Shown here: in pieces, positions 22,641 through 60,025 of the stretch | Layout: every line of letters begins with the position of its first letter | Position numbering within the stretch: the first letter of the stretch is position 1 | Source: Amoebophrya sp. A120 | Taxonomy: Eukaryota; Protista; Dinoflagellata | Direction of reading: 5' to 3' | Assembly (NCBI GenBank): GCA_905178155.1 | Contig: CAJINV010000001.1 | Span: 6,889,794-6,953,793 of the forward strand | DNA length: 64,000 nucleotides | The notes under the pieces: model-generated | What the model saw: the letters and a program-made list of their open reading frames with translations, nothing else | What the model was told of the DNA's origin: nothing | Databases searched by the model: none | Program-made: the position numbers and the translations under genes

Positions 22641-22833
22641 ATCGCCCGGTCGCTAATCAAACAATTCATTTGGGGTAGTTTATTTTGCAAAAACAGTTTC
22701 CTGTGTGCGGGGCGAGCAGACCTGGAAAGTGTCCATGATCTTGCGCGGTGTCCGATGAAAAACGGCTCCAAAAAGACAACCAGCACTCGAGTAGTTTGGA
22801 CCGCCGAAGATGAGCGAATAACGACAGTTTTCC

Positions 22834-24361: not shown

Positions 24362-25575
24362 TCAGCCCCCGTGTATGCATTTGTACCAGAGAATGACCAG
24401 CAGACAGAATGCCGTCGTGCCCAACAACACGAAGCTCTCGAACCGTTGTCGAGTTATCAAATGTAAAAATGTCTGGGTCTGGAAGATCATTTCAACATGT
24501 CATGCTAAATCTGAAGCATGCAAAGAAAAATTTGTGTTAAATGATTACCAAAAGTCGTCCAGTTTTGACCAAGTCGGGAGGGAGTTTCTCATGCAGGATA
24601 AGCATGAGAGAGATCGCACAGAATCTGTCATGCTAGGTCCTGCATTCCAGACCTCATGGGTCATAGAAAAGCAGCATGACAAATCGCGCATTCTTCCAGA
24701 TCCAGACATTTTTACATTTGATACGAGTGCCGATCTTGCCAATGAGGGAATCCATGTTCGGAAACATGCTGTTTATTCTCGTCATTTTCTGTCGCATGTC
24801 CCGAAATATCTCATTGTGCTTCCCTATCTGCTCGCGGTTTGCGTTCGCATTACTCAGCGCCTCGTCGATCAGCAAGTGGCTCTGCTCGAGCGTACCGCGT
24901 TCCCGTAGGAGACCTGAGCAATTTAACAGACTTGAATCAACACCGCGTCAGAAGAAATTGCTCTTGCAACGAATCTCGAGTTCGCGCAGGAACTCTTGCG
25001 TGAGACAAACCAAAACCTCCTACTGGTACCTTCCTCTTCATTTTTCGCGTACACGTCGCGCTCTCGGACTGGTAGAAGGTTACTTTTCCCTATCTGCGCG
25101 GGTAGGTCGCGTGTCAGCGACTTAAAATCCTGGACAAGGTCTCGGTACTGCTCGCGAAACCTTCAGATGTTTATTTTACACCTCTTTGTTTGTTACGTGA
25201 TGTTGTGGATTTCATTGTCATCGACACAACCACACGTTGACGTTGGCACCTGATACTGTTTCGAAATACAAGACGTAGCTGCACATTAAAGAAACACCTC
25301 CTCAGCTTCATCTGCGTCGTCGTCCTACTATCGCCCGCCCACAGCGCAGATAGCCGCTCGAGGTGCCTCTCAAAGTCGCGCAAACAGGATTCCGTTGCAC
25401 CCTGATAAGACCGCATTTCCGGCGTGGAGGCCTGCGGTTGGTTTCCGCCGCGGGCAAACATTCGCCGGAGCTCTTCCATGCGCCCTTCGAGATGTCGGTG
25501 CAGGGTTGTGATCTCCCGCACCACGTCCTGGTCGGACGAGCTGGACGAGCCGCCGCCAGCGGATACCATCGACAT
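24362..25575 (-). CDS. Golgi Qb-SNARE of GOS1/GOSR1 type; two GT-AG introns plus one TIR element
   Basis: Spliced ...RFREQYRDLVQDF...GLLRERGTLEQSHLLIDEAL...FPNMDSLIGKIGTRQRFESFVLLGTTAFCLLVILWY (SNARE motif plus C-terminal TM); the TM is reached only after removing 24455-24723 and one TSD. Confidence 0.75.
24455..24723. mobile_element. TIR element / introner E1 (269 bp), TSD CGAGT
   Basis: TATCAAATGTAAAAATGTCTGGGTCTGGAAGA...TCTTCCAGATCCAGACATTTTTACATTTGATA; CGAGT at 24450-24454 and 24724-24728. Confidence 0.95.
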
Positions 25576-26089
25576 CTCTTGGATTTATTTGCTAGAAAAG
25601 CAGAAGAACCAACAACCGATGGGCGCTTTCGTGTCATGACCCGAGCTGTAAGACAGTCATTTTATTGCACCGTAGAAAGACGTACTAAACTTATACTTAT
25701 ATATTTTCTAGTATTTTGTTGCAGGTAGGTGAGCTCCTTGAACTGCGCTGCTACAACGGGCACTGATCCAACACGCAACATTCCCAGCAAGGAATGACCG
25801 ATCCGCTTGGCAGGGACGCTTTGCGTTTCAATCTATCATTCGACGGCGTCACTTGCCTTACAACGCGAACAGTTCTTGTCCGCTATCTTGTGCGCCACAC
25901 TTCTAGAGGCGCTTGCCTTCATGTGAGCAGTGAGGCTGCTTTTTTTGTTTCCGCCACAAGCGCTGTCATCTACATCTACAGCTATCTGAAGCAGGCTTAT
26001 ATTGAATTTGACAGGCGGTGAAGTTGAAGAGCATTACGATCACGATTGTTTTTTTCACTTGTCTATATCTACTCGTCTTTCAGTTCCAG

Positions 26090-27670
26090 TCACTCGCCCC
26101 GAAACGGGATAAAGAGATCTGCCGCTGCTTCTTCTGGTGGATCGTCTTCGTCCAAAACGTCATTTTGTAAATCGGGAAAGTAGTATCTAGGAATCGTAGA
26201 ACCCAAAATTTTCTCGGCATTGGTACCGTCATCAAATGAAACCCCATCGGCAGGCTGTAATGGCCCATTCTGGTAAGAATGGGCGCAATAAAACATGGTG
26301 TGGCGATCTACTGGATCCCGTAGGCGCCACCCCTGCAGGTTCTGGTTGAAGGAACTCGCGTGGCTGAACATCCAAGCAAAGCTTTTCACGTTCGTGACGT
26401 TCCAGCTAGCAAGAGGTTGGTTAAACGCATAGGCAAACCCGAACATACCGGTCATATCCTGGACGTTTATTACGTTCCACTTCCCAATGGACTTGTTGAA
26501 AGACCACGCAGACTCGAACATACCTCGCAAGGATGTCACCTTCGCGACGTCCCAGTGGCCAATCCGCCCGTTGAAGGCCGGAGCGCTCTGAAAAGCCCCT
26601 CTTAAGCTGACAACGTTGGCAGTGCTCCACTTGTCCAGGTGTTGGTTGAAACTCCTTGCTGATCCAAAAATTCGAGTCATGTCGACAACGCTGCCAGTAT
26701 CCCAGCTATCGAGTGGCTGGTTAAAAGCGTGTGCCTGTTCAAACATCCGCCGCATTGTCTTCACCTTCCCGACGTCCCAAAATTCTCCAATTGGTTGATC
26801 AAAAGAGAAATTCCAAGAGAACATCTCTGCCATTGTAGTAGCACCGGCTACATCCCAACCACGGATGTCTCGATTGAAGGTGGAGCTCTGAAACAATCTG
26901 CTAAAATTTCTTACACCCGACACGTCCCACAGCACGATCGGACCGTACACGGCTTCGACTTCTTCCTCTGTGCCGAATTTCTTTGGAAAGGTGTCGAATC
27001 TCCGAGCGTCGGTCCTTACAGAAACTACCTGTTCCCACCTGTAGTTCCCGCCTCCCGGGTCGGACTTATAGAAAGGCCGCAGCGCAACGTCCAGTTCTCT
27101 CCGCGATTCAATGGCTTTGTAGGTGCGCACGTAGTATCGGACGGAAAAAGTAGGTACCTCGTCGCAGTCATGTTCTCCTGTGGCCGCAGAGCCGCATTTG
27201 GAAACGCGGCGCTTCTTACTCTCCGGAAAACTCGATGCTGAGTCCGTGTCCGTGTCTGCTTTGCACGACGCCCCTGCCAACAAGCTCGCGCTAGCTACTT
27301 TTCCCGTTTCAATCGCTTGTGGCCCTCCAACGTTTTCCTTCTCCGCCTTCTCCTGCTGCTGCACAAACTTCACGAAATTTGCATCGTCCACCGCAAGGCC
27401 CCGGAAACTCATCAAATCCGCCTGGTCCAGGTTCGCGTCGTCGTCCTCATCCTTCCCCGGAAGTAGAGCGATCCGCCCCCAGAAAATACGCGACTTTTTC
27501 TGCACGTTCGCGTCCGAAAGCACGTAGGCAAGGGCAATTGCTTCCTTGACTTGCCTCACCGTAGTGGTCGCGGCGTCCCACGTGTGCGGGTCCAGCGGCA
27601 GCGGCTCTCCGGAGGCGAGGCCGAACACGCTTAGCCTGAACGTTGTCGTTGCTTCGGAAGTGAAAGTCAT
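26090..27670 (-). CDS. DUF285 / BspA-like 25-26-residue surface-repeat protein
   Basis: About nine repeats of FNQPL.SW[DN]V..V..M..MF. Confidence 0.85.
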   Translation of the reverse strand: MTFTSEATTTFRLSVFGLASGEPLPLDPHTWDAATTTVRQVKEAIALAYVLSDANVQKKSRIFWGRIALLPGKDEDDDANLDQADLMSFRGLAVDDANFVKFVQQQEKAEKENVGGPQAIETGKVASASLLAGASCKADTDTDSASSFPESKKRRVSKCGSAATGEHDCDEVPTFSVRYYVRTYKAIESRRELDVALRPFYKSDPGGGNYRWEQVVSVRTDARRFDTFPKKFGTEEEVEAVYGPIVLWDVSGVRNFSRLFQSSTFNRDIRGWDVAGATTMAEMFSWNFSFDQPIGEFWDVGKVKTMRRMFEQAHAFNQPLDSWDTGSVVDMTRIFGSARSFNQHLDKWSTANVVSLRGAFQSAPAFNGRIGHWDVAKVTSLRGMFESAWSFNKSIGKWNVINVQDMTGMFGFAYAFNQPLASWNVTNVKSFAWMFSHASSFNQNLQGWRLRDPVDRHTMFYCAHSYQNGPLQPADGVSFDDGTNAEKILGSTIPRYYFPDLQNDVLDEDDPPEEAAADLFIPFRGE

Positions 27671-28602
27671 TTTCCTGAAGATGCTACAGTTTCAATGCCT
27701 TTGGATCACTGTCCGTGAGTCGGTACTATGGTTGATTCTTTTTTTTCTGCGTTTGAATTCTTTTGTGTCGTTGGTCGCTACTTGAAATGCACTTGCCCGT
27801 ACTATACTATAGTCATAAAGCTTTTCCCCGAAATCCAAACAAATGTATCAAGAAGAGTGAAGCTGCACGAGTGCCGATGCTTCCGGAAGCTGTTTTCCTG
27901 AATTTCCTTTTTCATGTCCGGTTTGACAGTAAAATCGCTTTTGAGACTACTCTCTCTCTCTTTACCGTGCATCTCATCACACGATACATCTCCTCTCGGC
28001 GTCGACTCTTCAATCACGAAAAAACGACAGTACGCAACCCGAGGCACGAGGCTTGGACAAAGCTACAACGAAAAAAAGTCGAACTTCTGCTGTTTGTCCA
28101 CGGGACCGTTGCAACACTCGCAGTCATGTGCTATGAAATCTGAGCGCAAACAAAGATGGATGAATGTCTTGATATATTTATGGTGTCAATGATTCGCTTT
28201 TGTCACTTGCCAGCATACGCGAACAATCTGCTATCCCGCGCCACGCTTCTACTAGTGACGCAACAGGATTTCTACGAAGGTGCATCGTGGCGTTTTCGTG
28301 AAGGTACGCCTGTGCTTTTCCGCCTTTGACTATTGTTCGCGACCGATAGGCTCTACCGAGTCTGGAGCTGGAATAATTTTCACGTCGATCTTCTAATTCT
28401 ATATTCTCATTGTGTAAAAATAGCCGTTTGGAACTTTCTACTTGCCAAAGAAAAGAAAACATTTTACAGAAAAATTTGACAAACACGGAAGACTGTAAAA
28501 AAGAATACGAGAAATGAAAGATGAAACATTGCGCAAAAACAGTGCCTCTTCCACGCGCAGACCTAGACTAACACGGTTGAAAAGAAATGACAGTGATAGT
28601 AG

Positions 28603-30188
28603 TCAGTAGAATCCTCCCGCGTCGAAACCCCAGCCGTTTTCCGCGCTATTGCCCCAGGAGTTTTTGTTTTCTGCACGGTTGCCCCAGTTTTCCGCGCCGT
28701 TGCCCCAGTTTTGCGCGCTGTCTCCCCAGCTTTCCGAACTGTTGCCCCAGTTTTCCGCGTCGCTACCCCAGTTTTCCGAATCGTCACTTCCGGATCCGGC
28801 CGCGAGCTCCGGGGTGATCAGCTCCGCTACCCATTTCCCATGCTGGTAGGTCACATTGCCCAGTTGATACGTCCACGACGTGCTGCGCATGTTGGGGTAA
28901 TAGACCTCGATTGCGGCTCCTTTGTCGGCTCCGTTGAGCAGGCCAGTGGTGCCGACATCATTCGCAGCCTGCTCCATCTTGGCCGCGAAGTCCTCGAAAT
29001 GAAATGCGGTTTCGAAGGTGATGCGGATACAACTCCAGTCCGCACCTCCTGGGACGATGTTCTTGGAGTGGAAAGGAATCTCGTAGTACGGACGGGGCCA
29101 CCACGCCATGTTCTGCAGCTTGTCTGCGTGCACGAACGTGACCACGTTTTCGATGCCGTACTTGTTCATGCCGACGGCAATGGCGTCCTGGCTCCCATAG
29201 GGCACGATGACCCAGTGGTCGTCGGTCCAGCCCACTACCAAAACCGCTTCTGTGTCCCGACCGCCGGGGCGTTGGAAGGACAGGCTGACCACCGGTCCGC
29301 TCTTCATCACCTCCGCCTTGATGAAATCCGCACTGGGTGTTTGCACGACGGTAATCTGCCCATACATATCGCGCAAGCGAAAGAGCTGCGAGCGGTTCAG
29401 GGCCTGCCCGGCGACAATTTGTGCTCTCATCTCGATGCTGTTCAATGCTGGGAAGTTGGAAAAGATCGGACCCGAACAAAAACGGCCACTGGCTGAAACT
29501 GTCGAAGGCCGCAGGAAACTTTGACGTCCCGCCCGACTGCTTAGCCGTAGTACGGGGTTTCTTCCGCGGCGGCTGGTCGCCGGCCTCCAGGGCTGCTTTG
29601 TAAAACGGCGCAAGCTGCTGAAACAACTGCGTCGCTTTCTTTCGAGTAGCCGGCGGATTCTTGTCCGGATGCATATGGATTGCAAAAGTGTCTGGGTCTG
29701 GAAGATTGCAACTTGTCATGGTAAATCTGAACCTTCGCTACCCGCCATACTGCTAAAGGGACGCGGACATGCAAAAATCTGCGTTGCATGAATGCCAAAA
29801 GCTGTCCACTATTGACCAAGTTGGAACGGAGTTTCTCATTCAGAATAGGCATGGCAGAGACCTCGCACAGTCTGTCATGCTAAGTCCCGCATTCCAGACC
29901 TCATGGGTCATGGAAAATCTGCATGACAAGTCTACAATCTTCCAGACCCAGACATTTTTGCAATCCATAATGCAGACGCAGCTGCATTTTCTTGTACGTG
30001 GGTTTGAGCACCGCCTCATCGCCGACCATCTCCTTCTTGAAGGATGGGTCATTGAGCTGCAAAAGTGCGGTGAGTGAGTTGTGGTCGGGGGCCTCCTGCA
30101 GCGCCGCCTCTGCACTGCGGAAAAAGTCCTCGTTTTCACTTGAGCTACCGCCACCGCCCGCAGCGCTACCCGCGCCAACACTAGCCAT
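28603..30188 (-). CDS. J-domain-like + degenerate cathepsin-B-like protein with WG-repeat tail; interrupted by E2 and an apparent 1-nt frameshift near 29480
   Basis: YKKMQLRLH|PDKN after excision; FPAAFDSFSQWP, IKAEVMKSGPV, EAVLVVGW, YGIENVV; paralog at 30577-31926. Confidence 0.65.
28625..28785 (-). repeat. 21-bp coding tandem repeat (ENWGxxA-type), ~7 copies
   Basis: Repeated GTTGCCCCAGTTTTCCGC-like units; SENWGSDAENWGNSSESWGDSAQNWGNGAENWG... Confidence 0.85.
29674..29969. mobile_element. TIR element / introner E2 (296 bp), TSD ATGCA
   Basis: TATGGATTGCAAAAGTGTCTGGGTCTGGAAGATTG...CAATCTTCCAGACCCAGACATTTTTGCAATCCATA; ATGCA at 29669-29673 and 29970-29974. Confidence 0.95.
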
Positions 30189-30576
30189 TTTGTCTTTTAT
30201 CTGCGAAGAAACTTACTGTCTTTTCTGGTTGAAACCTGCCACAGAGGAAAAAACCAAGAAAACTAAGTGTCGTTTTCAACGTAGAAAGAAAAAGTTACTT
30301 ACTATCGACTTGAAATTCCGTGAAAAACAGTCAATAGGACTCGAGTAAAACTAACACGAAAGAGCCGCAAGCGCCACGAGCAAAACAAACGCGACGGACA
30401 GGCATGCATGAACGCGCGAGCAAAAAGCGCACTGACGACGACGACAACGACGATGGACACACAATCCCAATTCTGCCTCGCGAGGACAGAATACGTGTTT
30501 ACATGAAATTTACGATGCGAGCGCTCTCTCGGAAAATTGACTTCTCCTGAGGTTTATTTACTTTTCTCTTCACGAA

Positions 30577-31926
30577 TTATTTTTTCTTCTGTTGGACGAA
30601 AGCGAACTTGACTTCCCACGTTGGAACTTGCAAGGCGCTAGATTGCGGCGCATCAACGAGGGCTAGGTCCTGCAGACAGACCGTCCACGAATCGCTCCGC
30701 CGCCCGGGGACGTAGTACTCGATCGGCGCCTTGACCCGCGCCGCCTCGATGATCCCGCCCGCGTTGTCACACTTCGACGAGGGCGGCAGGCATTTCAGTG
30801 CCTGCTGTGCGAGACTCATCACTTCCCGCAGCTGCTGTTGCGTGGTCACGGACACGGTAAACCCGTTTCCGTCCGTCTGCTCGATGTAAAACTTGCCCTC
30901 CGCGAGGTAGGGTCGTGGCACCAGCCACGGGATATCCACGATCGCGGTTTGCGGCACGAAGGAAATCAGCCTCTGGATATCGAACTGGTGGAAAACCACC
31001 GGCATCACGGTCTTCCACAGAAAAACGTGCGGGGGCGCTAGGGAAAGGAAAATCGAAACGGTCCACGCCTCGCCAAAGCTCTGGTTTGTCCACCCCGTAA
31101 TCAAAACGGGCATCGGGCGCCCGATGCAACTGCGCAGGTGCCGCGCGCTCAGGTGGGACACGCACGGATTTTGACACTTGGCAATCAAACTTTCCGCGAA
31201 TTGCTGCGTGCAGATGAAGGACTTACTCACCACCGGGCCTTCCATGATCAGAGTCGTCTTGATTGCACTCACGCTCGGGTCGTGCAAGTTTGTGATGTTC
31301 GCCGATGCGATCGGCCGATCCGCGGAGTACAGTGCGGACGCGGGGAGCGGTCGGGTGTGGGCGATTTGCGCTCGAATGTTGGCACAGTTCACCGCGCAGG
31401 CCAAATCTGCGTCTTCGACCAGCGAGTCGGTGTTGATGTACTTCCAGCTGTCAAAAACGTCGAACAAAGGTGGGAAATTCCGCCCGGAGTCCGCATCTCC
31501 GCCGGCTTCCTCCGTGAAACTCGTGCTCGTGCTGCTACTGCTGTTTCCATTTCGAGGCCTTTTCGCCGGTGGCTCGCCGAGCTCGTCCCCGAAGGAAGAT
31601 GAATTTTCCATAGCCGCGCGGTGAAAGCCATCCAGTTTTTGAAACAGTTTCGTCGCCACGTCCTCGTCGCCCTGCACAACGTGCTTGTCCGGATGAAGAC
31701 GCAGTTTCAACGTTTTCATTGCTTTCCCCAGACTGTCCGCATCGCTGCAACCTTCCTGCGTAAAATCCGGATTCGCGAGCTTGAGTAGAGAAGTTAAGGT
31801 TTGCAGACGGGGTTTTTGCTTCATCACGGCCTCCACGTTTTGCAAAAACAGCTGCCGATACGGATCGCTGGGAGCGGTTGCAGAGCCCACTTTATTTTCC
31901 GCTCCTGCCGTGGTGCTTGTCGTCAT
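30577..31926 (-). CDS. J-domain-like + degenerate cathepsin-B-like protein (intact, intronless paralog)
   Basis: KTLKLRLHPDKH; FPPLFDVFDSW, IKTTLIMEGPV, PVLITGWT, FDIQRLI; GAAAATG start at 31926. Confidence 0.75.
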   Translation of the reverse strand: MTTSTTAGAENKVGSATAPSDPYRQLFLQNVEAVMKQKPRLQTLTSLLKLANPDFTQEGCSDADSLGKAMKTLKLRLHPDKHVVQGDEDVATKLFQKLDGFHRAAMENSSSFGDELGEPPAKRPRNGNSSSSTSTSFTEEAGGDADSGRNFPPLFDVFDSWKYINTDSLVEDADLACAVNCANIRAQIAHTRPLPASALYSADRPIASANITNLHDPSVSAIKTTLIMEGPVVSKSFICTQQFAESLIAKCQNPCVSHLSARHLRSCIGRPMPVLITGWTNQSFGEAWTVSIFLSLAPPHVFLWKTVMPVVFHQFDIQRLISFVPQTAIVDIPWLVPRPYLAEGKFYIEQTDGNGFTVSVTTQQQLREVMSLAQQALKCLPPSSKCDNAGGIIEAARVKAPIEYYVPGRRSDSWTVCLQDLALVDAPQSSALQVPTWEVKFAFVQQKKK

Positions 31927-33900
31927 TTTCAGTGTGCTGTTGAACAATACTATTTGCTACAATAGAGTACTGCGAAGTTGACCAAGAAGATAATTTCAAA
32001 AAAAGCCGGAATTGCGGCTTAATATAATATCCAATTTACTCGACAGCTCTATCTACAAGAAAACGAGACGACCATGTTTTCGTCTTGTGCCCTGCATCTT
32101 CACAATTTTTCTGTACTTGTTACCCCAACTTTGTAATAACGAAACCCTGTGCGACGGAAGACGAAACAGCACTTCGACACTTGATTTTGCTTCGATTCCC
32201 AAAAATCATCTGCGCAAGCATTTGCAAGGACGATGAATCTATGACAAGAGCAGCACAGCTCTATAGAATGTCAGCACATCATTTTTGCAAATCAGAACCC
32301 AAAGCAGCACGTTTCCTGTGCAGTGCCCGTCGAAAACGTCAACGGTTTATGTATTGAACAGAGCAAAATCTATTTCCTTCTAACCGTCAGGGATCGCGTA
32401 AGTAACAGGACTCTTCATAAGGCTATGAGTACAGTTTTCATAATCTCCAACAGTCCAACACAGCTCCTGGTTTCTCCGACGGACCTTCTCCACAGTGTCC
32501 GACCTGCATTTTATTCATATATGTCCCTGTCGTTCTTTTCTGCCGACCAGCCACCTCGGCTTGGTAAATAGTCAGGCGTAGCGCTAGTGTGGTGCTATTT
32601 TTCTTTTTGAAGTTATCCGAGCATTAAAATCGTTCGAAGGCAAGACGGAGCACCAGCACGATGTATCGATTCATTACAGGCATGAATCGAGGAATCGCAG
32701 ATGCAACTTCGCTGTTTCCGTGGTAGAGCTTCACTTCGAAACCGCTACCGCAGACACGGTTTCATATTAGCGGTAGGCTGTTTCTTTCTTGGGTAGGATG
32801 CGTTGATGTCTAGTGATCGATAGTTGTGAAAAACAGCCCCTGGCTGCTGCGCAAGATGTTGGCAAGACGCTTGCAACAATCAGGTCGGCTGCGGTGAAGA
32901 TTTTCAAAGAATGTGATTGCATAGTTGTTTCAAATGCACGATACAAACTAAGCATAGTTTTTCGGTTTGTAGTTTTTCCGTTCTCATCACTCTTGAATAC
33001 TGGTTTGATGAAAAGATTTTTGATACTGGCTTTAACGAGTTCGACTAGCAAATAGGATAGCTCCAAAGTTTGTAGAAGTAATTTTTCCGAAAGCCCGCTC
33101 AAGTCATAACTTTAAAAACGGCAAATGTTTGTAAAGCTACTGTAAATTGTTCATCAATATCCAATCGTGCAGAAAAGGGAATAAAAACTGTGATCCGGGA
33201 AGATTTTTATCTACGTTTTGGTTCCGCTTTTTTTGTCTGGGATTTATTTTCGCCCGAGGTCGCGAGCAGTTGTCCTAATGCTAGATGTGCGAGCAACATC
33301 GTTGCTGAGCGTTTTTGCGTAGTAAATTTTGGCCTGAAACGGCGGCAAATAGGTCTCAAGAAGGGGAATTTACAGTGGTGCTAAAACCAATAAAAACAAA
33401 GTTAGCTGACCGAACAGCTTAACAAACGTAGTATCAAAGAATTTTGATTGTTTGGAGTGCTGAAATTTGATACAATATTTTCTTCGAGTAGAGAAGCAAA
33501 AGCTCTTGTAGAATTATTTACGTGTTTTTGGTTCCGTACAAGATGAATACAAACTACATTTTTGGTACTGTTTGAAAAGAACTAGCAAAAAGATATTGGG
33601 GTTTTGTAAACTCAATACATGTTCACCGGGAACTTTACGGAAGTCCCAATCAGCATGCATTGACTCATTCAGATAAGTCGACCTATTCGGTGGTCTCTTA
33701 ACAAATTAGAAACAGAATTTTGCGACATGAGCTTCTCGAATCCGGGCGGCTGTGACCCAACGCCCTGATCGTGGATAGTATCACCACACGTACGCCAGCA
33801 CCTCAGATTTACAACTACCTCTACCACTCAAATCAATGATCATGACCAAGCAGGTGGAACTTTATTTGACTCCCACCCGCGCTCCACGTTCATTCGTGTC

Positions 33901-36900
33901 CTATTTCCCCTCCTTGGGCTCGAAGTCTATGTTTTTCAGCTTTGCGTGCAAAATGTTTGTCGAGCGGTAGGACCAGTTAGGCGTGAACCCGTTTCCCCAG
34001 ATCACCACCCCGGGGCCGAAGCAACGCACGTAGTTGTCAAACTGCGCCTCCAGTCGGTGTACAATTTGCGGGAGCGCAATCCCAGGCGCCACACACTCCG
34101 CCTTACTGTCAAACCAGGACACCCCCACGACTTTGGACGACGAGAACGCGGCACCAGTAGAGCTTGTTGGGGTAGAAGTACAACTGGAGGAAGCTGCACA
34201 ACTGTCTGTCGCGGAATTCTTTGTCGTAGCATCATCTTCGGCCGCGTGTGCGAAGAATTGCAGCGGTTCGAGAAAAAGAAAATCCGGGGTCGGCAGCACC
34301 ACGCGCCCGAAAATGAGCGCCTGGACCTCCAGAAGCTCCGGCTGTGTGACAAAGTTCTTTGTGGTTTTCTTGTAGTCCAGCGCGTATCGGTATGCATTGC
34401 AAATATGTCTGGGTCCGGAAACTTGTGATGCTAAAATGTGGATGATGGAAACACTTTCGAATGCAGCCCAGCATGACAACTTTCCAGAACGCTTTCTCAT
34501 AGGCAATCCGCATGAGAAACTGCGTTTTTGCATGTACAAAAGAGGCCGCGACTTTTATTGGTTATGCAATACAGATTTCCTAGGTATGGAAAGCTAGCAT
34601 TACAAGTTCCAACTTTCCAGACCCAGACATATTTGCATTTGATAATCGGAAGGCCTGCTCGCACTCCTCCTCCGCCTTCGCTCCCTATCAAATGCAAAAA
34701 TGTCTGGGTCTGGAATATTGCCGGGTTTGTCATGCATATTTTCCATGACCCCTGAGGTCTGGTATGTAGCACAGAGCATGACAGATTCCGTGAGAGTTCT
34801 ATCATGCCTATCCTGCATCCGAAACTGCCTCTCGACTAGGTCAAAAGTGGACAGCTTGTGGTAATCATGCAGCACAGATTTTTACATGATTCAGATTTAG
34901 CATGACAAGTTACATTCTTCCAGACCCAGACATTTTTACAATCCATACTCCCTTCTCCATCGCGACACGGTCCATGTCGCGCTGCACCTGCAAAATCTCG
35001 TGCGCCTTCGGGTTGCCCTTCAGCACCAGCCCGGCTTTTTGCAATACCTGGATGGAAGAAGATTAAGCTTGAGTCATGCTTTCAGGATCATCGTGTTCGA
35101 TTTTCTTCAGCCGGCGTCAACTTCTATCTATGACATGGAAAACTTAAACTACCAATATGTTCACGAAAAAATTACGAATTATTGGTACCTGCACACAGCG
35201 AAACGCTTGCATTCCAAGCGTGGTTTCGCACCAAGATTCGAACTTCGCTACCGGCTCGTCTTCCAAGCAATCGACCGCCTGCCGCATCAAGCTGCGATCC
35301 CGCTTCAAAAAACTCTGATTTTGCACCTCCAAGTGCACGCGCAGGTCGTTGTTGATGCACTTCAGCGGTGCGTCCGTCCACTGTGGCACGGTGCAATTGT
35401 GTCGCGCCAATAGCTCACCCGCACGGAAGAGTGGCGCCGCCCACGAAAGCAGCCGATGCATCACCTGATCCTCAATGGCCGGCTTGAAGTCGAGGATTGC
35501 TTCGAGACGCGGCCCAAGCAACACCTGTTTTCGACGTGGTGTTTGGAACATTGATTTCCATTTCACAATTCCAATTTTCGTAAAGTGCTCACTTACTCCT
35601 TCTGCGAAAGGAACACATTGATTATGCATTTTTTGTGTACAAACATACTTAACTCACAAAAAAAAAGTACCGTTTCTGCATTGTCGACATGAAACATAGA
35701 CCGTGCCACGTCGAGGTACAGACGCAATTGCTCGGCAAAGGGCAACTCACAATTGCGATCTTGTGTGGCCTTCTTGGTGAACTTGTCTCCACGGATATCG
35801 GGAACCAAACCCTGGACGCAATGAACATCAGGCACGTTTTTCACCTGTTGAGAGCGACAAGTTTTTCATCTGTCTTATGCGTGACATGCAGATATGATAA
35901 TGTCGAAATTGGGAAGCTGGTGGTCGCGGTGCAGACAGATTTTTGAACACTTTGCACGGATTGATGTGACACGCGTAGTACGTGATCAATGACGAACAAC
36001 ATAAACATAATGATCGCACAATATACTTCTGGCAGGACGCAGTCCTCCAAAATCTGACCGCGCTCTAACTGATCCCAGGCGGAAACCTCCGCGTCTTTCT
36101 CCTCGCTGGAGTTTTCTTGTGTAGCGACGCCGCCATTCGAAGCCTCCTGCTTGTCTCCTGCTGGGGCAACGGACTCAGAACTGGATCCGTTTTGTTCTTC
36201 CTTGATCACTCTCACGTCCGGTTTCTCCAGTTTGTGGGCTTTCTTTTCTTGCGGCTCAGACCCTACTTCCTTTGCTGCCAAATTTACCAAAGGAGTGGCG
36301 GCTTCATCGACGACCACGGGTGCTTTCTTCTCGTCCCCTTGTTGTACTTCTTCAACAGGGTGCTGCCCATCATCTGCATGTGGACCTAGTACTTCTGCTG
36401 CAGCATCTGTTTTCTGATCGTCATCCTTTCCGTCTTTACGGACCACCGGTGAAGCGACACACAACGACCCGTCTGCGACTTTCGGAGTGGCTTCTCTGCT
36501 CAAGGTGATGTCGGTTCCACCGGCGCACCTGTTGGAGCAGCCCGTCTGCCCCTCCGTCCGTTCCGAGTCATCGAACTCGAAATACTCATCGGAAAGAGGA
36601 GGACTATTGGACACGGGAGTCGCAAACCCAGACTGGTCCCCCCGCAGCAAACTTTCCACACGATCCCGATTGATCAAACTGTCGAGGGAAACTTCTTCGG
36701 CGCGATTCTCAACATCTAGCGCCGCTGATGCGCTGGCGCCTCGTTCACCATTTATTTTTCTGGCCGGTGTTGTAGAGGTCGCTGCATCCTTGTCCTCTTT
36801 TTCATCCAGTTGTGCCTTCGCATCGACCACACTTCCTTCTTTTTTTTCCTTCAAGTCCGAGAGCAGAAGCGGCGTCTGTACTGCAGTGCTTGCGCTCGTG

Positions 36901-39900
36901 CTATTGCTCGCACGCAACGCGGTCGGAGACAATCTCGTTCCATTGTCGACGGAGGCCAGAAATTTTTCAACTTCGACTACCTTCGCTGAATTATGCTCTT
37001 TGCTCTTTGCGCCGCTTTCAACCTTTTCATCTTCCGTTGGCGAGTCTTTCTTCTCTCCTTCCTCGCTGTGCTTCGTCTCGGAGGGACTCCTATCAAATGC
37101 AAAAATGTCTGGGTCTGAGAGATTGCCAGGTTTGTCCTGCATATCTTGCATGACCAATGACGCCTGTAATGCATGCCCTAGCATTCCAGATTTTTGGAAG
37201 GCTTCCTGATGCTTATTCCGCATGAGAAATGCCCTCCCTGTGTAGCACAAACTGGACTCCTTTTGCTAGTCATGCAATGCAGGTTTTTTTGGAAAAAAAA
37301 GACAGCATCACAAGTTACCACCTTCCAGACCCAGACATTTTTGCGCTTGATAACTCCTGCTGCTGCAGAGCTCGTCCCAGCAGCTTCCCACCGGCACTTT
37401 CCGCAGGTCTTCGATTCCAGTTGGCCCAGCTGGTTTTTTGATGTTGCCTTCCTTCCCATCATCTCCCGACAACATCTCATCGCCTTTATTCTCCCCCAGT
37501 GCTGAGCTCGTCGTCCCGGCGGTGAAGTCCGGGTAGAGCGAGAAATCAAACACCACTTCCTCCTCCGACGAAGGTGTAAGTTGGTCGTCGTGCTCCTGGT
37601 AGAAGACGAAGGGTGCGGCGGTCCGAGATCCCAGACTCCCGCGGCGCACGCTGGAGTTCTTACTTTGATGCGAAGAAAACATGGACGATGCCGTAGTGGT
37701 GGAAAAGGGTACGGGCGGGACGCCGCCATACTTGGAACCAAACGCGGGCGCCCCTGCTCCGCGTGTACTACTACGAAAGGTGCTGTGACTTGTCGCATTA
37801 GTTGTTCTAGCAACATTGCTGAAGGATCCGTTTTTGCTGGCGTAGTTGTTACCGGACGCTTTATTCTTTCCCAGCATCCCCGAAGCACACTCGCCTTCGG
37901 AAACCGAGCTACCCTTGCCGCTGGCCACAGCTGCGCGAGAAGTTGTGTTCGTCCCTTGTCTCGTCGAAAGGCCGCTCCCTGATGTCCCAGCGTTACAACT
38001 GAAACTAGCCTTGCTTTTGCCTTCCTTCTTCTTCCCGCTGGAAACATTGTCGAGCGGCTCGAGGACGCTGCAATCCAGTGCGGAAGACGCCCGTTTTTTG
38101 TTCATCTCGCAAGTAGCAATAGTCGGTGGCAGTTCGACACTCTTCCGCCCTGTAGCGTCGCTGGCGACTGGGGTCAGAGACGCGGGTGTGCTAGTCTTCG
38201 ATCCACCTTTGCCTTTCTTCTTACTGCGCTTGGAGCGGACCTCCGCCCACCCGTCCTCCTCCTCGGTGGTAGGTTTCTTGTGCGGCGAGGCCTTGTTTTT
38301 CATCTTCCCCGGAGACGTAGTCGCTGCAGAGCCGCATACTTCAACAGTAGTTTTCTCCTGCTTTATTTCGCCACTTCCTTTAGCAATTACGGAAATGGAA
38401 TTTTCCTCGCTCGCCGCCGTGGTCCCCTCGTCTGTCGACGCAGACGAGAGGGTAGACGACGAAGTGGCCTCCGCGCCCGTTAGCGGATCATCGGTCAAAA
38501 TCTTTTCTGCTTCATCTTTTATGTCCACGGGAACGAACTGATTTTTGGCTCTTGCAGCTTTAGAACTACAAGTCTTCTGTTGGTTCGTCTCTTCGCTTTC
38601 ACCACCCTCCGTCTTTGGCGACGCTTCGTCAGTTTTGTCTTCTCCCTTTTGGAGACTGGAAGGCGCTTCGTCGCTGCTTGCCTCACCCATATGATCTGAC
38701 ACGGACGCGTCAGATATTAGTATTACCTCTTGCGCCTTTTTCACCTCTGCTGTTTTCTTTTCTTTGCCCGAACTCGTAGAGGTCGACGTTGTTGCTTTAT
38801 TCTTTGCAGCATCCGAACCCCCGGCTTCGTCCTTTGCTTTTTTCGACACAGGAGCAGCAACCCCACCTTTAGAAGTACTGGTCGCCCCAGCAGCTTCTTT
38901 CGAGTTTGTTTTCTTGCTTCCTGACTCGTGCGGAGAGGTGGTCGATGATGTATCTGATTTTTTCGATTTCTCCTCGCCCTTCTTCTCGATCGACGTACTA
39001 TCCTCCACCTCGCCAGGCGCGATTTCCGCACTGTTGGCCGCCGCATTCGCGTTTGTCGACGTTGACGTGGAAGCTTCTTCTTCGTCAACAACCTCGATGA
39101 TCGGATTATCCTCCTCTGCGGTGTCGCCACTGAATTGCTGGCAATTGTGAATAAACTGCAGCAAAGCCACGTCGTTCGCCGTCAAACGCTGCAGGGCTGG
39201 CGGTAGACCCTTGGTCCCCGGCCGCACCGGGAGCTGCACCGGGGCGTTGCTGTTTTTGTAGTAAGGCCGCTGCTGGTGTTGCGGATGCTGCTGCTGCTGC
39301 TGGGATTGATCGAGCAAAGCCTGATGATAACCGTTGTTCATGCTGCCGTACGTTTTCGCGTTCAAGCTGCCACCGTTCATCATGGTGCTTGACTTTCCCC
39401 AAGAGTTGTAGCCCTGCTTACCGGCGTGCAGCTCTCCTTTCGCAGCTGCACCTTCTCCCTTGTGCGCTGACATTATGTTGGAAGTACAACTACCCTTGCT
39501 CGACTTCTGCAAGAGCGCCTGCTTCGACTGCCAGTAGTAGTCTTTTCCCGTGCTGTCTTTACCAGCATGGTACACCCATGATTGTTGTTGCGAACCAGCA
39601 GCAGCATCCTTGTCAACACCGGTGACGTCGTGATTTCTTTTTCCGGCCCCGTAAACTACTGCCCCGCTGTCCTTGCCGTGCTCGGAAGCCGCGACCGCTT
39701 TATTTGCAGATGCGGCGGACGCAGCACCGTTGTGACTTTCGTATTCGTAGTCGTCGTCAGGCGAAGACGCATTGCTGTGATGTTGTTTCGAGGACCCTGC
39801 GTATGCGTGCCACTGCTCCGAAGAAGACCGCTCTCCTGAGGCCTTGCTACCTTTTCCGTAATCTTGCCAAGTAGAAGACTCGTGCCACTTTTCTCTGCTT

Positions 39901-42900
39901 GTTGTGCCTTTTGATGTTGTTCCTTGCACGAGTTGTCCGTGATTATTATACTGTTCGTAGCCATGATAAGATGTGGCTGCAGATCCTTTATTTATCGCCC
40001 CTGCCATCATGGCTCCTCTAGAAGTTGTGCCTGGCGTGGTTGCTGCTACGCCGTCTTTCGACGCATTGTGGTGGTGATTGTACTGACTTCCTTTCGTTTC
40101 CGCTGCACTAGGAGCTCCTGTGTTGTACGCACTACTTCCAGCACCGCCTCCTTTACCTCCTTTACCGCTCCAACAATTGCTCAATCCGTGCTTCCCTGCG
40201 CCGTGACCGCTATACGCAGCTTTATTCGTGCCGTGCATGTAGTAGTAATCACCATTATTTTTCCCACCGCCAGACGCAGTTCCAGAGCTCGTTGCGGAAG
40301 AGGAAGTGGAATAACTCCACTCCTCTTGCTCTCCAGACGAGGAAACCGGTGAACTTTTCAAGTGCTGCATCTTGCTATGCTGCACTACTGCTGCACCTCC
40401 TGCGCCTTCTCCCTTGCTCGACTCGACAGCATAAGCGGCGGAGCCCTTGCCACCACCTTTTGCTTTGACCTGCTCATAACCCGCATTATACGCGTGACCG
40501 CCACTTGTGCTGCTTGCGCCGTCGGAAGAAGCAGCATTCACTTGTTTTCCGTTCTTCCCATCCTTACCCGTACCTTTCTGCGCAGCTGCCCAAGCTGCGC
40601 CTGCCTTTGACAAACTCCCGCCCTTGGCGGAAGCAGCACTCGCGGCAGCCGAGGAACTTGCTCCACCTGCTCCTGCACCGTACGACGAAGTACTAGAGTT
40701 GTGCATAAATTGCAGTTCGCTGTTGTAGTAACTAGAATTTCCGCCTTTTGCGGAGCCGTTCTTGTCGCGCGGAAGCCGTTGCGACGACGCGCCATACTGC
40801 TCCGAAGTTGAAGTCGATCCGTAAGTATTCATCTCGTGCTTTCCGCCTTTTCCGATCGTTGTACATGATCCCGCACCAGCATACTTCCCGTAGTGGTTGT
40901 GCTTCCCCTGCTGCGCTCCTTTCATGGTCGACGTCCCCTTGTTGTATTCTTTCTCGTGACCGCCACCACCTCCATGCTGCCCGGCCGTGACCGGAGCAGG
41001 AGGTAAATTCCAACCGCCGGCTTTCAGCATCAGTTCCTCCTTTTTCCTTTCTGCACTAGTATACCTTTTCGCGGCCGAGCTGTCTTTGCCATCGCTCATC
41101 ACGACCCACTTTTCGGTCGGACCAAAGGAAACGTGCCGGCCGCGGGGGCCAGATTTCGTCCGGGGTGTCGTTGTGTCCTTCATGATCCCACCCCGCGGTG
41201 TGGTAGTGGAGCACGCGATCTTCAACTTGCCTCCGATTTTACTGTTTGCACCAATCGTCCCGTTGCCGTACCGACCGGAGTCGCGATTGACATTCATTTT
41301 TCCGTTGCTTCCGCCATAAAGATTTTCCTGTAAATAATCCAATTCCTCCTCCGTATCGCTTCCAGTGATGTCCTCTTCCTGTTCTTCGGTACTGTCCGGT
41401 TCGCAGCAATCTTCGTTGTAGTTTACGTTCTCGTCAAAGTTGATATCTTCAAAGTCGGGCGGCGGGGGCGGGGAAACAGACTGGTCGTCAGTTTCCTGAA
41501 GAGCACTAGTGCCTTGCTGCTCTAGCACCGCGGTCGGCAGCTGCGAAGCCGCAACGACCGCGACGTGGCTGGGGGCAGCGCCCGCTGAAGCGCTAGAAGT
41601 ACAACCCGCGCTAGCTGCTGCACCACTAGCCGCAAGTAACCCCGCCGCGGCCGCGGCACTAGTGTTGTAAATATCGTGGTGCTGCTGCACGGCAGAAAGC
41701 GGCACGGCAATGGGCACGCCGGTAGTTGTCGCGTCGTGCTGCTGGGCGGTTACTGCGTGCTGCAGGGCTTGCTGGAGCTGGTAGGCGTTACTATCGTACG
41801 TCGTGTAGTACCCCGCACCTCCCGTCGTGTACGCGGACGCGTCGTAAAGCTCGGACTCCGCCGAAACCGGGTACATCATCATCGTGTTCGGGTCGTAAAG
41901 CATGCACTGGTGGTGCGTAGTCGGAGCAGGTACCTGCTAGTAGTGTGCTTCGGTGTCTCTTTTCTGTAGTCTCATCGACGTAAGCAACATCCTTCGAGGG
42001 ATATAAACGTCATTCATCTTGTTCCTAGTATACTTTCATCGATTGAGTATTAACAAGTACACTTTTGCAAATCTGTCAAAAGGAAAACAGTATTTGGTAC
42101 CACCGTGGTTGCAGCTGGATAAGAGACCAACAGAGGATAAGACACATCCCCCGGGGGATACACGTAATGCAGCTGCGTGGCATGATCCACCGTCATCCAT
42201 TTGTCGTCCTCTGTCGCATCGAACGCGGTTATGGCCTGCGGCGGCGACACCGCGGTGGCCATGTCAATGTCGCCATAGTGATAGGCTTGGCTCCCGTTTG
42301 GCTGCCACACCGGAAAACTGTAGTTCGTGTGCGTGGATCCGGTTGCAGCCGTCGCAGTGGCGGCTTTTTTCTGCCGCGTCTGGGCGGCGCGCTGCTGCAG
42401 GTACGTGGGAACGGCCGGGGGGCCCTGTATTTTCGTTTTTGATTTAGACCAAAAAGAAGCAGCATGTCAACGAAGAACCAAAGCACTAGTATCCTGAACA
42501 ACTGCATTCGCATTTGCATTTTCTGTTCTTCGTTCCTCTGAAAAGAACAAAAGGCGAAAAATGCAGTACCGACAAATCGGGCGCTTTTGCGGGCTTGCTC
42601 GGAGTGGCAATCGCAGCGGCTGGACCTACGTCCACGGTTGGCTTGTTATTTTCCCCCGGCGGTGGGACAAACTTTTTCACTTTCGTGGATTTCAAACTCG
42701 CGGCAGAGGAAGACGACCCTCCGCCACTCGCCGCGGCACCAGCGGACACTGCGTGCTTACTCATCGTACCCATCTTCGCGGCAAACCGGCTCGCTCCGGA
42801 GGTTGTTTTGGGGTGGACTAGTTTCGTCTTCGAGGTGGCTATCGGGGTCTTGTGCAGGAGGTCAAGTTTCGAAGAAGTTCTCGTTTTAGTATTCACGCCA

Positions 42901-57939: not shown

Positions 57940-58638
57940 CTTGCTCCCACTCTGTAAATCGCTCCCAAGACTACACGGTAGAACAGCCGGTATGTTTTCC
58001 GTGAAACAAGTAGCTTTCCGCGGTGCCGAAGCTCCTGCTGCGCTGCTGCTCCGTTACCGTTACCGCGCCACCATACCAGCACCTACGCGTCCAGCACGGC
58101 TTTCCTGTGAGAAGACGAAGACCCGGCGCCTCAACAAACTTGTCGCCGATGCCCGGACGATTCAATCGCCCACCCGACTCGCCGAGTCACCATCAAACAA
58201 CTGAAAAATGAGATTCCAAATGCGATGTTCGGTAGAAAGCGATAAAAAAAACTTTCAAGAAATCAAACCCACACACTCCTTTTGGAAATCCCCTCACAGT
58301 GCCGCTCATTCGTCGTCGCGGTTTCTTTCCGTCGCCTCACTCGAAAAAAGGTTGGTACAAAATCGCACAACACGAAACAGTGGAGAACAGAATCCCCGAA
58401 AGATGAAAATATCGGTGCTCATACATGAGGCGGTACTGCGCAGCTATTTACGTAAAGAACTTTAAAATTTCTGTACAACGCCAGCGCGAGTAAACATTCA
58501 TCACGTGTCAGTGCGACTCTCGTCGACCATGTATCAAAGTAATCAGATTCGTTTGTAATTCCTGTGTTGTTCACACATTTTCGTTGTTGGCGAGAGGACT
58601 TCCAAAGCCACGACTAAGCGCATTGCGGCCCCTCATTT

Positions 58639-60025
58639 TCATTCATCATCGTCCCCGCCAACCATGGATACGTCGATGTCGTCTACATGCGCGTAATACA
58701 GGACCCCTGTTTATCAAATGTAAAAATGTCTGGGTCTGGAAACTTGTGATGCTGTGCGGCGTATCATGAGGAGGCCACAATTGCTGGCTCAGCATGACAA
58801 GTTTCTGAGCTTCTAGGTGTTGCCTATTCTGCATGAGAAACTACGTTTCTGCATGACAGAAAAGTGGGGCTCTTTGGTAATGTGCATGACAGATTTAAGA
58901 GTCATGCCAGACAAGCATGACAAACTTGCATTCTTCCAGGCCCAGACATTTTTACATTTGATACTGTTAGAACTGCTGGGAAGTCGAAGCAAAGCCCGCC
59001 GAAACCACACCATAGGATGCAACCTGGGAATCACAGTTCAGGATCATGTCGCACATAAGTTAGTAAGTACTTGAGTTAGGCGGGAAAAAATCGATACAAA
59101 TTTGACAAGAACGCACGTCGCACGTGAACAATACGCAAAAACCTCACCTGCTCTCCCCAGTGCCTCGGCCCCCATGAACTCCAGGAACCCCGTCCTATCA
59201 AGAGGAAATATCCCCCCTCCCCATATCAAAACGAAACTTCTGATGCTGGATTTGTGTACACAAATACGCTTTGTATTGCAGGAAGGCATCGCCGCCAGAT
59301 CCTCAGCCTAGCTAGGGGCGTTTGGGTCTAGTTGTTCAGCATTGCAAACGGCTTCCCTTTAGGCCCACTAGCATGACAAAGCGCTTCCATAATGGGACGG
59401 AGGCTACTGCTCTTGTCTTCTTGCAAGACAGATGTGGTTTGTGACCACAAATCAGCAACACAAATTTTCGGAAACATACCGTTTCAATATGGGGAGGGGG
59501 GATTTTTCCTCTCAATACGTCCAGACGGTTGTTGGCGCTACTGCGAATCCGGCGGCAAGACCGCCCAAGGTGAATAGGTCGAGCCTATTGTGCCAGCAGC
59601 TTTTTTGAATCTTAAACGCGGCCTTCTGCTTCCCCTCCCTCTCCAAATGGCTGTAGGCATATGCGCTGTAGGGAAACCTAGTTAGTAGCATTTGCAGGGA
59701 GGATGAAATAAAAGCGTCTGTTTATTGTCAAACGAACTCCACACTGTGCTCCCGTTGCTCATCCTCCATCAACGAAGAACACTTGTTCTTATCCTTACCC
59801 TGAAGCGAGCCCCGCACCAGCCGTAACGCCCATACACCTTGTTGTGTCTATTAACATCGTGCCTCGCGAGAAGCCGGGTCGAAGAAACCCAAGCAGTGCG
59901 CCCAGACCGCATCCAACCATCATACCGCCCTGCAGATTCTTAAACGTGTGGTGCAAGCCTAGAAACAACCCGGGAAACCGTACATCTGCTGGCTCCTTGG
60001 TGGCGCCCAAATAATAGAGCACCAT
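58639..60025 (-). CDS. Small Gly-rich membrane protein, multi-exon; paralog A; contains E6
   Basis: MVLYY...KNLQGGMMVG; AAFKIQKSCWHNRLD (~59590); last exon after E6 excision GGLCFDFPAVLT|GVLYYAHVDDIDV. Confidence 0.55.
58712..58963. mobile_element. TIR element / introner E6 (252 bp), TSD CTGTT
   Basis: TATCAAATGTAAAAATGTCTGGGTCTGGAA...TTCCAGGCCCAGACATTTTTACATTTGATA; CTGTT at 58707-58711 and 58964-58968. Confidence 0.95.

Follow-up and report, generated by a model that had tools for sequence, protein, structure and literature searches.

How are transposon-like elements that interrupt coding exons removed from transcripts, and what places the cuts? This question is raised by a stretch of 64,000 nucleotides from the genome of a marine parasite, Amoebophrya sp. 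A120 (hereafter the window), in which a 236-aa exon is 100% identical to an Amoebophrya sp. A120 protein, its only match. The preliminary description of the window had listed six elements, each with TIRs of ~30 bp and a perfect 5-bp duplication (TSD) of its own, and all six were recovered with the same starts and duplications (Table 1). Its count was incomplete: a seventh element, E7, which is of another TIR family and likely lies in the same gene as E6, had been overlooked. A search for TAT..ATA pairs with at least 17/25 complementarity and a duplication of at least 5 bp returns seven in the window and none in 20 shuffles (2-base blocks), and a 5-bp direct repeat stands at the boundaries of 7/7 elements. 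The family is a repeated one, with 18,732 X1 contigs on the window and their depth heaped on the elements; an Rfam scan of the window gave 0 matches.

Table 1. Elements of the window and the neighbouring gene used as splicing control.
Feature	Positions	Strand	Description
E1	24455..24723	host gene minus	269 bp, main family, TSD CGAGT (24450-24454 / 24724-24728)
E2	29674..29969	host gene minus	296 bp, main family, TSD ATGCA; host P0001
E3	34391..34644	host gene minus	254 bp, main family, TSD ATCGG; gene with TPD motif
E4	34686..34947	host gene minus	262 bp, main family, TSD CTCCC; same gene as E3
E5	37091..37352	host frame minus	262 bp, main family, TSD ACTCC; open frame >1900 codons
E6	58712..58963	host gene minus	252 bp, main family, TSD CTGTT; near a C-terminus
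E7	59196..59517	minus frame open after removal	sister family, C-rich TIR, TSD CGTCC, TAT..ATA ends
REEP-like neighbour gene	23021..23551	minus	two GT-AG introns, 182 + 166 nt, canonical in X3

Coding context

The elements had been said to lie all in coding exons and never in non-coding DNA; the location in coding sequence holds for 7/7, and is weak evidence alone, with about half of the window scoring as coding. As had been stated, retention disrupts the frame at each element, with an in-frame stop within 3-24 codons, while removal of the element plus one repeat leaves the minus-strand frame open at all seven, that of E5 for 1526 + 416 codons. The proteins restored in this way are sensible ones, as anticipated: V-SNARE_C (Pfam, bits slightly below the cut-off) is found directly upstream of E1, which sits immediately ahead of the TM anchor in the V-SNARE gene, TPD (Pfam) is found downstream of E3, and DnaJ (Pfam, E 2e-4, below the cut-off) spans the E2 junction in P0001, where E2 lies inside the HPD motif of the J-domain. 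P0001, an annotated A120 protein, is itself the translation obtained after precise removal of E2.

Relatives, ~330 in number, were taken from one public assembly (JACKZZ01), in 139 loci picked around TIR matches, and include the TIR family of E7; copy number and exon share rest on the reads and on these 139 loci. The loci share no non-element DNA with the window, and for two of their exons no A120-identical protein was found (best matches 71% and 62%, the latter from A25). Enrichment in coding sequence is also seen in this larger set (228/316 vs 777/2000), a comparison that is partly circular, the cleaned loci themselves having served to train the coding model. Precise removal leaves the flanks in frame in 83 of 90 same-strand pairs from the public loci, and the lengths removed are spread evenly modulo 3 (101/92/101 of 294). 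Since an element leaves together with one copy of its repeat, the protein is restored in any phase. A bias in codon phase (48/51/90) was considered as a clue to splicing and set aside, as four positions of the target site predict that bias (p 0.18).

Removal from transcripts and retention in DNA

RNA support is provided by the contigs of one run (X3), with E1, E6 and E7 lacking it; the host genes are not covered by the raw reads of X9 and X10, two RNA runs uninformative on splicing. The GT-AG introns of the REEP-like gene are spliced in X3, which thus represents spliced RNA and carries its own internal control. The neighbouring introns had been called canonical, which the RNA contigs confirm for REEP, those of UBC4 and SNARE having been read by eye only. 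Junctions that keep a single TSD are seen directly for E2, where position 29668 is followed directly by 29970 in contig 11 of X3, a skip of 301 nt (E2 + 5). For E3 and E4 the agreement is one of length: contig 12 breaks at 34385 (E3), where precise removal fits by arithmetic on the middle of the contig, and its length of 646 equals precise removal of E4, whereas use of GT..AG would give 649 (also by arithmetic). The same contig breaks at 37085 (E5), with one side among the matches listed; for E1, both ends are filled in DNA-like contigs and the RNA junction is not among the matches listed. The summed RNA/DNA depth, a rough measure, is 0.002-0.004 on the elements vs ~1 on the flanking exons. 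The data support the view that the elements are non-autonomous TIR transposons, precisely removed from transcripts without GT-AG.

Such joins could also be produced by a reverse transcriptase switching templates across the hairpin, in which case the mRNA would keep the elements and translation would need ribosome hopping. Direct repeats combined with structure are known to mark non-canonical junctions that are false (PMC4176328), there is no record of how the X3 library was made, and for hopping it may be said that the 5-nt repeat always contains one repeated codon. However, the assembled contig is the joined form and not a minor variant, element sequence is ~250-450-fold depleted in RNA relative to exons, each retained element ends translation within 24 codons, and tens of thousands of such introns are reported in A120 (PMC7789003), all of which makes template switching very improbable.

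The DNA, for its part, keeps the elements. DNA-like contigs of flat ~30x depth cross from flanking DNA over the repeat and into the TIR without a break at no fewer than 8 of the 10 ends of E1-E5, a test bounded by the loss of rare variants from contigs and by the possibility that X1 is the window's own source. This disfavours DNA excision, which the preliminary description had put forward as an alternative to splicing. It also weighs on excision in a developmental stage, in the manner of ciliate IESs, with transcripts made from empty alleles: the elements are TA-bounded, transposon-derived and precisely removed, and the RNA and DNA runs are different samples, but in view of the unbroken contigs we regard this reading as extremely remote. 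Another way of leaving the DNA intact would be for RNA polymerase II to skip the element, extruded as a hairpin, by re-annealing at the second repeat, so that no excised RNA is formed. Orientation independence and the one kept repeat would be accounted for, but skipping needs matching repeats, and in the larger set 49 elements with one repeat mismatch and 13 with two persist, 31 of the 49 in a confidently coding frame; X9 also has reads of a transcribed related element end, and we consider polymerase skipping highly unlikely.

Placement of the cuts and candidate catalysts

Precise removal from RNA has no precise register that is GT-AG, GC-AG or AT-AC (0/7), and E3 has neither GT nor AG in any register, both as first described; the U12-type AT-AC pair is thus found in 0/7, and minor snRNAs are reported absent in A120 (PMC7789003). 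E4 and E5 have seven equivalent registers each, those of E5 including TT-AG. In both E4 and E7 an alternative GT..AG register keeps the frame and takes out 3 nt less than precise removal (324 against 327 nt for E7); by the contig-length arithmetic that of E4 is unused. Among 189 elements of the public assembly a GT-AG register occurs in 8 and GC-AG in 2, with no enrichment over the control, and 50 have neither GT nor AG. The composition of the TSD in coding orientation equals that of the control (G..G 17/189 vs 63/647), and a purine bias after the repeat was looked for in these elements and not found. Splice dinucleotides GT or AG are not selected for. Of 94 main-family copies, 72 could be oriented relative to transcription, and these divide 39:33. 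Given the lack of GT/AG selection, the equal orientations and the bypassing of GT-AG in E4, it is likely that pairing of the RNA ends, and not GT-AG signals, sets the position of the cuts. Of the 'structure-guided' removal proposed earlier, precise removal without GT-AG is borne out, and guidance by structure is what we still infer.

TIR stems are predicted in 7/7 elements (z of -6 to -13), and positions 8-22 are paired in them with a probability close to 1. At TIR positions 4, 5 and 7, 40-60% of the 172 copies lack pairing, which is the chance level, so that pairing beside the cut appears loose. No branch-point consensus common to the families or to both orientations was found.

These properties can be arranged into a four-step model. 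A putative dimeric cut-and-paste transposase would bind the TAT..ATA ends and internal GCAT(G/T)AC repeats, and would cut the target with a 5-bp stagger, preferring a palindromic site. The element is then kept in the DNA and is missing, with one repeat, from the transcripts (directly for E2, by length for E3/E4). In the RNA, the ~30-bp TIR stem would bring the boundaries together and the cuts would be measured from it, so that the signal would be equal in either orientation. Insertion, removal from the transcript and stem-measured cuts are, taken jointly, highly probable. For the fourth step, three ortholog comparisons, one of them weak and another dependent on an assumed residue, tentatively hint at a 5' cut 1-2 nt before TAT, with the 3' cut perhaps 3-4 nt beyond ATA; if the 5' cut fell 1 nt ahead of TAT, the start would be N-UAU, resembling the spliceosomal GUAU.

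The predicted catalyst is a rewired U2-type spliceosome, to which we give about an even chance. In its favour we count that A120 keeps 83/89 spliceosomal proteins and U2/U4/U5/U6, U1 being not detected (PMC7789003), that the listed non-canonical classes of A25 all start with TT, and that MITE-derived non-canonical introns of a tunicate are spliced by the U2 spliceosome, according to a title cited in PMC11282704. E4 bypasses an adjacent AG on which a normal spliceosome should act. The whole of our best explanation, in which exonic miniature DNA transposons have their cuts placed by paired ends and leave by such a rewired spliceosome, is likewise evenly balanced between being right and wrong. 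A serious contender, if somewhat short of an even chance, is that the hairpin is measured and removed by a structure-specific endonuclease and an RNA ligase, giving circles and not lariats, as suspected in Euglena. The lack of influence of junction bases and orientation, the lack of a branch point in common and the bypassed GT..AG option of E4 all agree with it; in Euglena, TIR-bounded introns are taken out once normal introns have gone, and appear as circles with no lariats (PMC11282704), and the 3' spacer exceeds the 5' one by 2-3 nt (PMC12501133), a geometry similar to our tentative register. Against it, no candidate enzyme is known, the CAG/CTG signature of Euglena is missing, and a U at +2, should it be real in both A120 and A25, would be typical of spliceosomal introns. 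A bolder reading, possible though doubtful, would be a second, general non-spliceosomal splicing route, taking any TAT..ATA hairpin with fixed cuts 1 nt before TAT and 4 nt after ATA, blind to GT, AG and orientation, and reaching the Euglena geometry independently; if true, it would make one whole transposon lineage harmless in exons. Sequence-blind, hairpin-measured splicing, should it exist, would offer a new tool for RNA work and account for the low-cost flooding of exons by transposons.

Some published and apparent clues to the cut position do not serve. The published excess of NT donors and AN acceptors is reproduced by symmetric aligner choice (0.62-0.75 vs 0.69/0.68), and the 5-bp register ambiguity alone suffices to generate the range of end dinucleotides that has been published. 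Repeat mismatches that seemed one-sided in 14 copies were not so in 49, and Pfam on 29 exons flanking informative mismatches gave no match for 25. Perfect repeats hide the cut, but in the 49 elements with a one-base repeat difference the true cut should be readable from ordinary RNA-seq. The question of excision concerns introns that number in the tens of thousands in a single genome.

Transposon lineage and known systems

The 139 loci and the window hold 172 paired main-family copies, of which, anchored on their cores, 143 have a perfect 5-bp repeat and 14 a repeat with one mismatch. Among 383 short TAT..ATA pairs, the duplication is 5 bp in 272 and 6 bp in 0, and in a search not requiring TAT this triplet is found at 334-338 of 344 ends per position. 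The target site carries a palindromic signature 11-13 bases outside the duplication (T -12, G -10, C +16, A +18, the duplication being 1-5), with T at -12 in 332/656 half-sites against a background of 0.21. The elements are short, TIR-bounded and of many copies, with a TSD of fixed length and no coding capacity, as MITEs are. Longer copies with a transposase ORF, suggested as a check, were sought in the JACKZZ01 loci: copies over 380 bp do exist, five of which show by eye no transposase-like frame, and no autonomous transposase element was found in ~0.6 Mb of these loci. A TIR-bounded stretch of 4.2 kb (L058) with an 871-aa frame, considered as an autonomous element, turned out to be two ordinary copies around a host exon, with a repeat shared by chance. 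A TIR search of viral contigs gave no match, and one of prokaryote genomes gave one 20-mer match (~1 expected by chance) with no partner end. hAT5 has a 5-bp TSD and is a possible lead for the transposase. Farhat et al. report no transposase in A120 and doubt mobilisation by a transposase in general (PMC7789003); contrary to this doubt, the 5-bp duplication, the target palindrome and the shared internal repeats argue for one transposase lineage, and they indicate what transposase to search for.

The class of elements is already known, as the A120 introner elements published in 2021 (Farhat 2021, PMC7789003). The IR/DR-flanked context given in the preliminary description fits: the elements come from the same genome, have IR and DR boundaries, and the published IR, TAT + 7 + AAA, is matched by TAT-N7-AAA at 14/14 ends of E1-E7. 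The mean length of ~240 nt, the non-canonical ends, the RNA-supported removal and the lack of an internal transposase are also alike, whereas the paper describes variable splice sites, with 8-20 nt for the IRs and 3-5 nt for the DRs, against a TIR of ~30 bp and a duplication of 5 bp here; it leaves the excision mechanism open. Gozashti et al. 2025 (PMC12130899) list A120 DNA families that measure 252-262 bp and are bounded by TIRs of ~30 bp (fam12, 331 copies; fam100) and a family, fam38, with '5-bp TSD, TA/TA Termini' and integrase-like ORFs, but the TSDs called automatically there vary between 2 and 11 bp and the families are classed as co-opting splice sites. The TIR strings of the window are in neither the Farhat supplement text nor 12/14 Gozashti files, these parts giving no element sequences. 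In the literature covered, which leaves out most subscription journals and figure panels, we found neither a resolution of the Amoebophrya excision mechanism nor a report of the target palindrome of these elements; the 5-bp duplication, the orientation balance and the lack of GT/AG selection were likewise not found in print.

The MITE introners of Micromonas and Aureococcus (per PMC7789003) are similar as non-autonomous TIR elements with TSDs that create introns. They use canonical splice motifs, whereas the present elements neither carry GT/GC and AG nor co-opt them from the TSD, a GT-AG register being as rare as 8/189 and that of E4 unused. Euglenid nonconventional introns (PMC12501133, PMC11282704) are alike in that a TIR stem joins the ends, TSD-like repeats are present and GT-AG is absent; they coexist with normal introns, and a MITE origin has been proposed for them. 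A terminal RNA stem is shared by the window elements, as predicted stems only. The Euglena introns depend on CAG/CTG placed at set spacings and on an exon that opens with a purine; the present elements end in TAT..ATA, no bias in junction bases was found, and the euglenid signature N3CDG ... CH'G N5-6 followed by R at the exon start is absent. Excised circles have been shown in Euglena (PMC11282704), while the Amoebophrya likeness rests on sequence and predicted stem. As for the transposase, IS3EU/GingerRoot, an integrase-like DDE family with TA..TA termini (PMC10045372), has a TSD that is usually 6 bp and differs in this from the 5 bp found here; it is a plausible source of the missing enzyme.

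Elements of the window and their host frames

A motif scan and a repeat search bore out the six elements E1-E6 of the preliminary description with their coordinates: they are 252-296 bp long, have terminal inverted repeats (TIRs) of about 30 bp and are flanked by perfect, element-specific 5-bp duplications. A general TAT..ATA scan revealed a seventh, overlooked element with a different TIR; none of 20 window shuffles yielded any such TAT..ATA element. All seven lie in minus-strand host frames, with E1 and E2 oriented opposite to E3-E6. As had been proposed, retention breaks the frame (a stop arises within 3-24 codons in 7/7 cases), and removal of the element plus one repeat, hereafter precise removal, opens it at 7/7. 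The precise-removal registers of the window elements include no GT-AG or AT-AC, as previously described for E1-E6, and also no GC-AG. At E4 and E7 there is also an in-frame GT..AG choice, with which three extra bases would stay behind; E7 provides a natural test of which removal route serves. P0001, the annotated A120 J-domain protein that hosts E2, equals the translation after precise removal of E2, and the exon that follows E2 matches P0001 at 100% identity.

The elements are spread very unevenly: no TAT..ATA element occurs at 1-24400 and 37400-58700, and some public loci hold at least 15 in 10-12 kb. The exact repeat that opens the window is either a recent duplication or an assembly artefact.

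Elements and other sequence features of the window
Feature	Position	Description
E1	24455-24723	main family
E2	29674-29969	main family
E3	34391-34644	main family
E4	34686-34947	main family
E5	37091-37352	main family
E6	58712-58963	main family
E7	59196-59517	second TIR family, differing from the E1-E6 TIR
Exact repeat	1-880, 2103-2982	880 bp
Coding repeats	6167-7488	low complexity, 24-bp period, charged coiled-coil type
Overlapping frame	28606-29667	354 codons, minus strand, other frame over P0001 C-terminal half; no Pfam hit
Tandem repeat	28647-28799	21 bp

RNA and DNA reads across E1-E5

Four of 11 sequencing runs were compared with positions 20001-40000 (E1-E5), using part of the joint and piece tables. 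Run X3 behaves as RNA, in that two canonical introns are skipped and depth is zero in two intergenic bins. The preliminary description had proposed looking for a transcript joint carrying a single target-site duplication (TSD), and X3 contig 11 has one at E2: 29668 is joined to 29970 with zero extra letters, and the 301 nt gone are E2 plus one repeat. Among the joints listed, X3 contig 12 is interrupted at the E3 and E5 repeats, and its middle comprises 644 letters plus two shared with a donor, or 646. By length arithmetic rather than from a listed joint, exons of 174, 336, 100 and 36 nt add up to 646 solely when both E3 and E4 are precisely removed; use of GT..AG at E4 would lead to 649.

Run X1 behaves as DNA, with a flat depth of 27-36x. 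Genomic empty sites had been suggested as a way of separating DNA excision from splicing; the DNA contigs keep the elements, continuing from flank into TIR at 8/10 ends of E1-E5 among the matches listed. Summed depths, a crude measure, imply thousands of copies in X1 and place element sequence in X3 at 0.002-0.004 of DNA depth, with flanking exons at about 1.

In runs X9 and X10 the host genes are without coverage. At 90% identity no host gene is covered by X9, but near 34861-34940 about 100 of its reads belong to one transcript that bears the end of a related element in a different flank; another strain may possess and transcribe the family. P0001 seems to be out of frame in its tail, and contig 11 of X3 extends from 28167 to 32004 over three frames with no intron there; mis-annotation, read-through or a frameshift could each account for the overlap with the 354-codon frame.

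Related copies in public loci and their target site

Metagenome contigs searched with the TIR gave at least 139 loci, which share a single assembly; when just the TIR core served as anchor, at least 172 copies could be paired, window included. Among the matches listed, these 172 carry perfect 5-bp repeats in 143 cases, one mismatch in 14 and more in 15, and each base of TAT is present at 334-338 of the 344 ends. The 383 short TAT..ATA pairs among the matches listed have a 5-bp duplication in 272 cases, none in 97, and a 4-bp or 6-bp one in 0. A set of 332 listed elements, chosen by a perfect 5-bp repeat (seven from the window, perhaps a few being chance pairings), comprises dozens of TIR types that share internal GCAT(G/T)AC repeats (GCATGA in 156/156 main-family and 155/176 other elements).

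Among the matches listed, 294 elements had their flanks scored, and 106 are confidently coding on both sides (16 strand-discordant); same-strand pairs are in frame after precise removal in 83/90, and removed length modulo 3 is flat. The suggested exon enrichment is seen in coding scores among the same matches, at 228/316 junctions versus 777/2000 random sites, a figure that is partly circular because the coding model was trained on these loci; 21/316 junctions are clearly non-coding. With 1, 2 or 5 extra bases kept, coding junctions fall from 228 to 87-104 by this model. Neighbouring elements in these loci often leave exons of just 21-100 nt.

The insertion preference is palindromic and sits far outside the repeat. 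Counting the duplication as positions 1-5, 332/656 listed half-sites carry either T at -12 or the complementary A at +18, against a background of 0.21, and both family groups show this. Either G at -10 or the complementary C at +16 is found in 173/308 listed main-family half-sites (background 0.28) and, not significantly, in 113/348 of other families. These four positions explain the codon-phase bias of insertions. A fixed stagger together with a symmetric target is the footprint of a dimeric DDE transposase, and all TIR families therefore read as a single MITE lineage whose transposase is lost or unassembled. The absence of a transposase noted in the window extends to the public element loci, longer copies included, among the matches listed.

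Signals for removal and relation to published introners

Perfect repeats hide the cut position and mismatched ones reveal it. Among the matches listed, 49 elements carry one mismatch (16, 8, 5, 8 and 12 at positions 1-5, the outer ones being commoner), and in 19 mismatched elements the protein is altered. Clues to the register were sought in orthologs, on the assumption that the ancestral residue is preserved by the copy that stays in the exon. For an SNF2 gene (L009), Phe is the residue of two orthologs; the upstream copy also gives Phe and the downstream copy Ser, with a one-residue gap three positions on. In a CAP gene (L074) spacing across the joint is that of a solved homolog, and the upstream copy gives Gly, which we take to be conserved there. 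At L066, orthologs have Thr and Val, the downstream copy Ser and the upstream copy Trp. Together, these three data points hint, as a lead only, that the exon may keep three or four bases of the upstream repeat. The published end-dinucleotide spread says nothing on cut position, because register ambiguity alone reproduces it.

In 189 listed elements oriented by coding strand, repeat composition equals the control, a GT-AG register is possible in only 8/189, neither GT nor AG is present in 50/189, and main-family copies face both ways (39:33). Selection therefore favours neither splice dinucleotides nor a strand-specific internal signal, which leaves the symmetric ends. Their predicted stem has a pair probability near 1 at positions 8-22, and mostly to about 28, in 7/7 window elements; TIR positions 4, 5 and 7 are unpaired at chance frequency in the 172 copies among the matches listed. 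Removal very probably takes place at the RNA level, placed by the hairpin, with template switching, polymerase skipping and DNA excision jointly sharing the little probability that remains. For the catalyst, a rewired spliceosome has an even chance; a nuclease-ligase route, such as that suspected for nonconventional introns of Euglena (PMC12501133, PMC11282704), is a somewhat less favoured possibility. The excision mechanism becomes easier to address with mismatched repeats as a test and with the target signature.

IS3EU/GingerRoot elements have similar TA..TA ends but usually make 6-bp repeats, versus 5 bp here (PMC10045372). Gozashti et al. (2025; PMC12130899) distinguish 58 A120 families; TIR families of 252-262 bp are among them, as is a family with a 5-bp TSD and TA/TA termini. 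Farhat et al. (2021; PMC7789003) report 66,565 RNA-supported A120 introns, over 60% non-canonical, with U1 undetected and the mechanism left open. The window TIR strings have no match in the searched supplement text of either paper, and no numbered family was matched. Farhat et al. (2021; PMC7789003) further characterise the A120 introners as having both direct and inverted repeats, the latter beginning with TAT, seven variable bases and at least three A, and this start fits 14/14 window ends. The preliminary description was right in what it observed and sensible in what it concluded. Its question whether the family is catalogued can be answered at the level of the class, which is not new: the window elements belong to the A120 introners already published, here in the very genome for which they were described.
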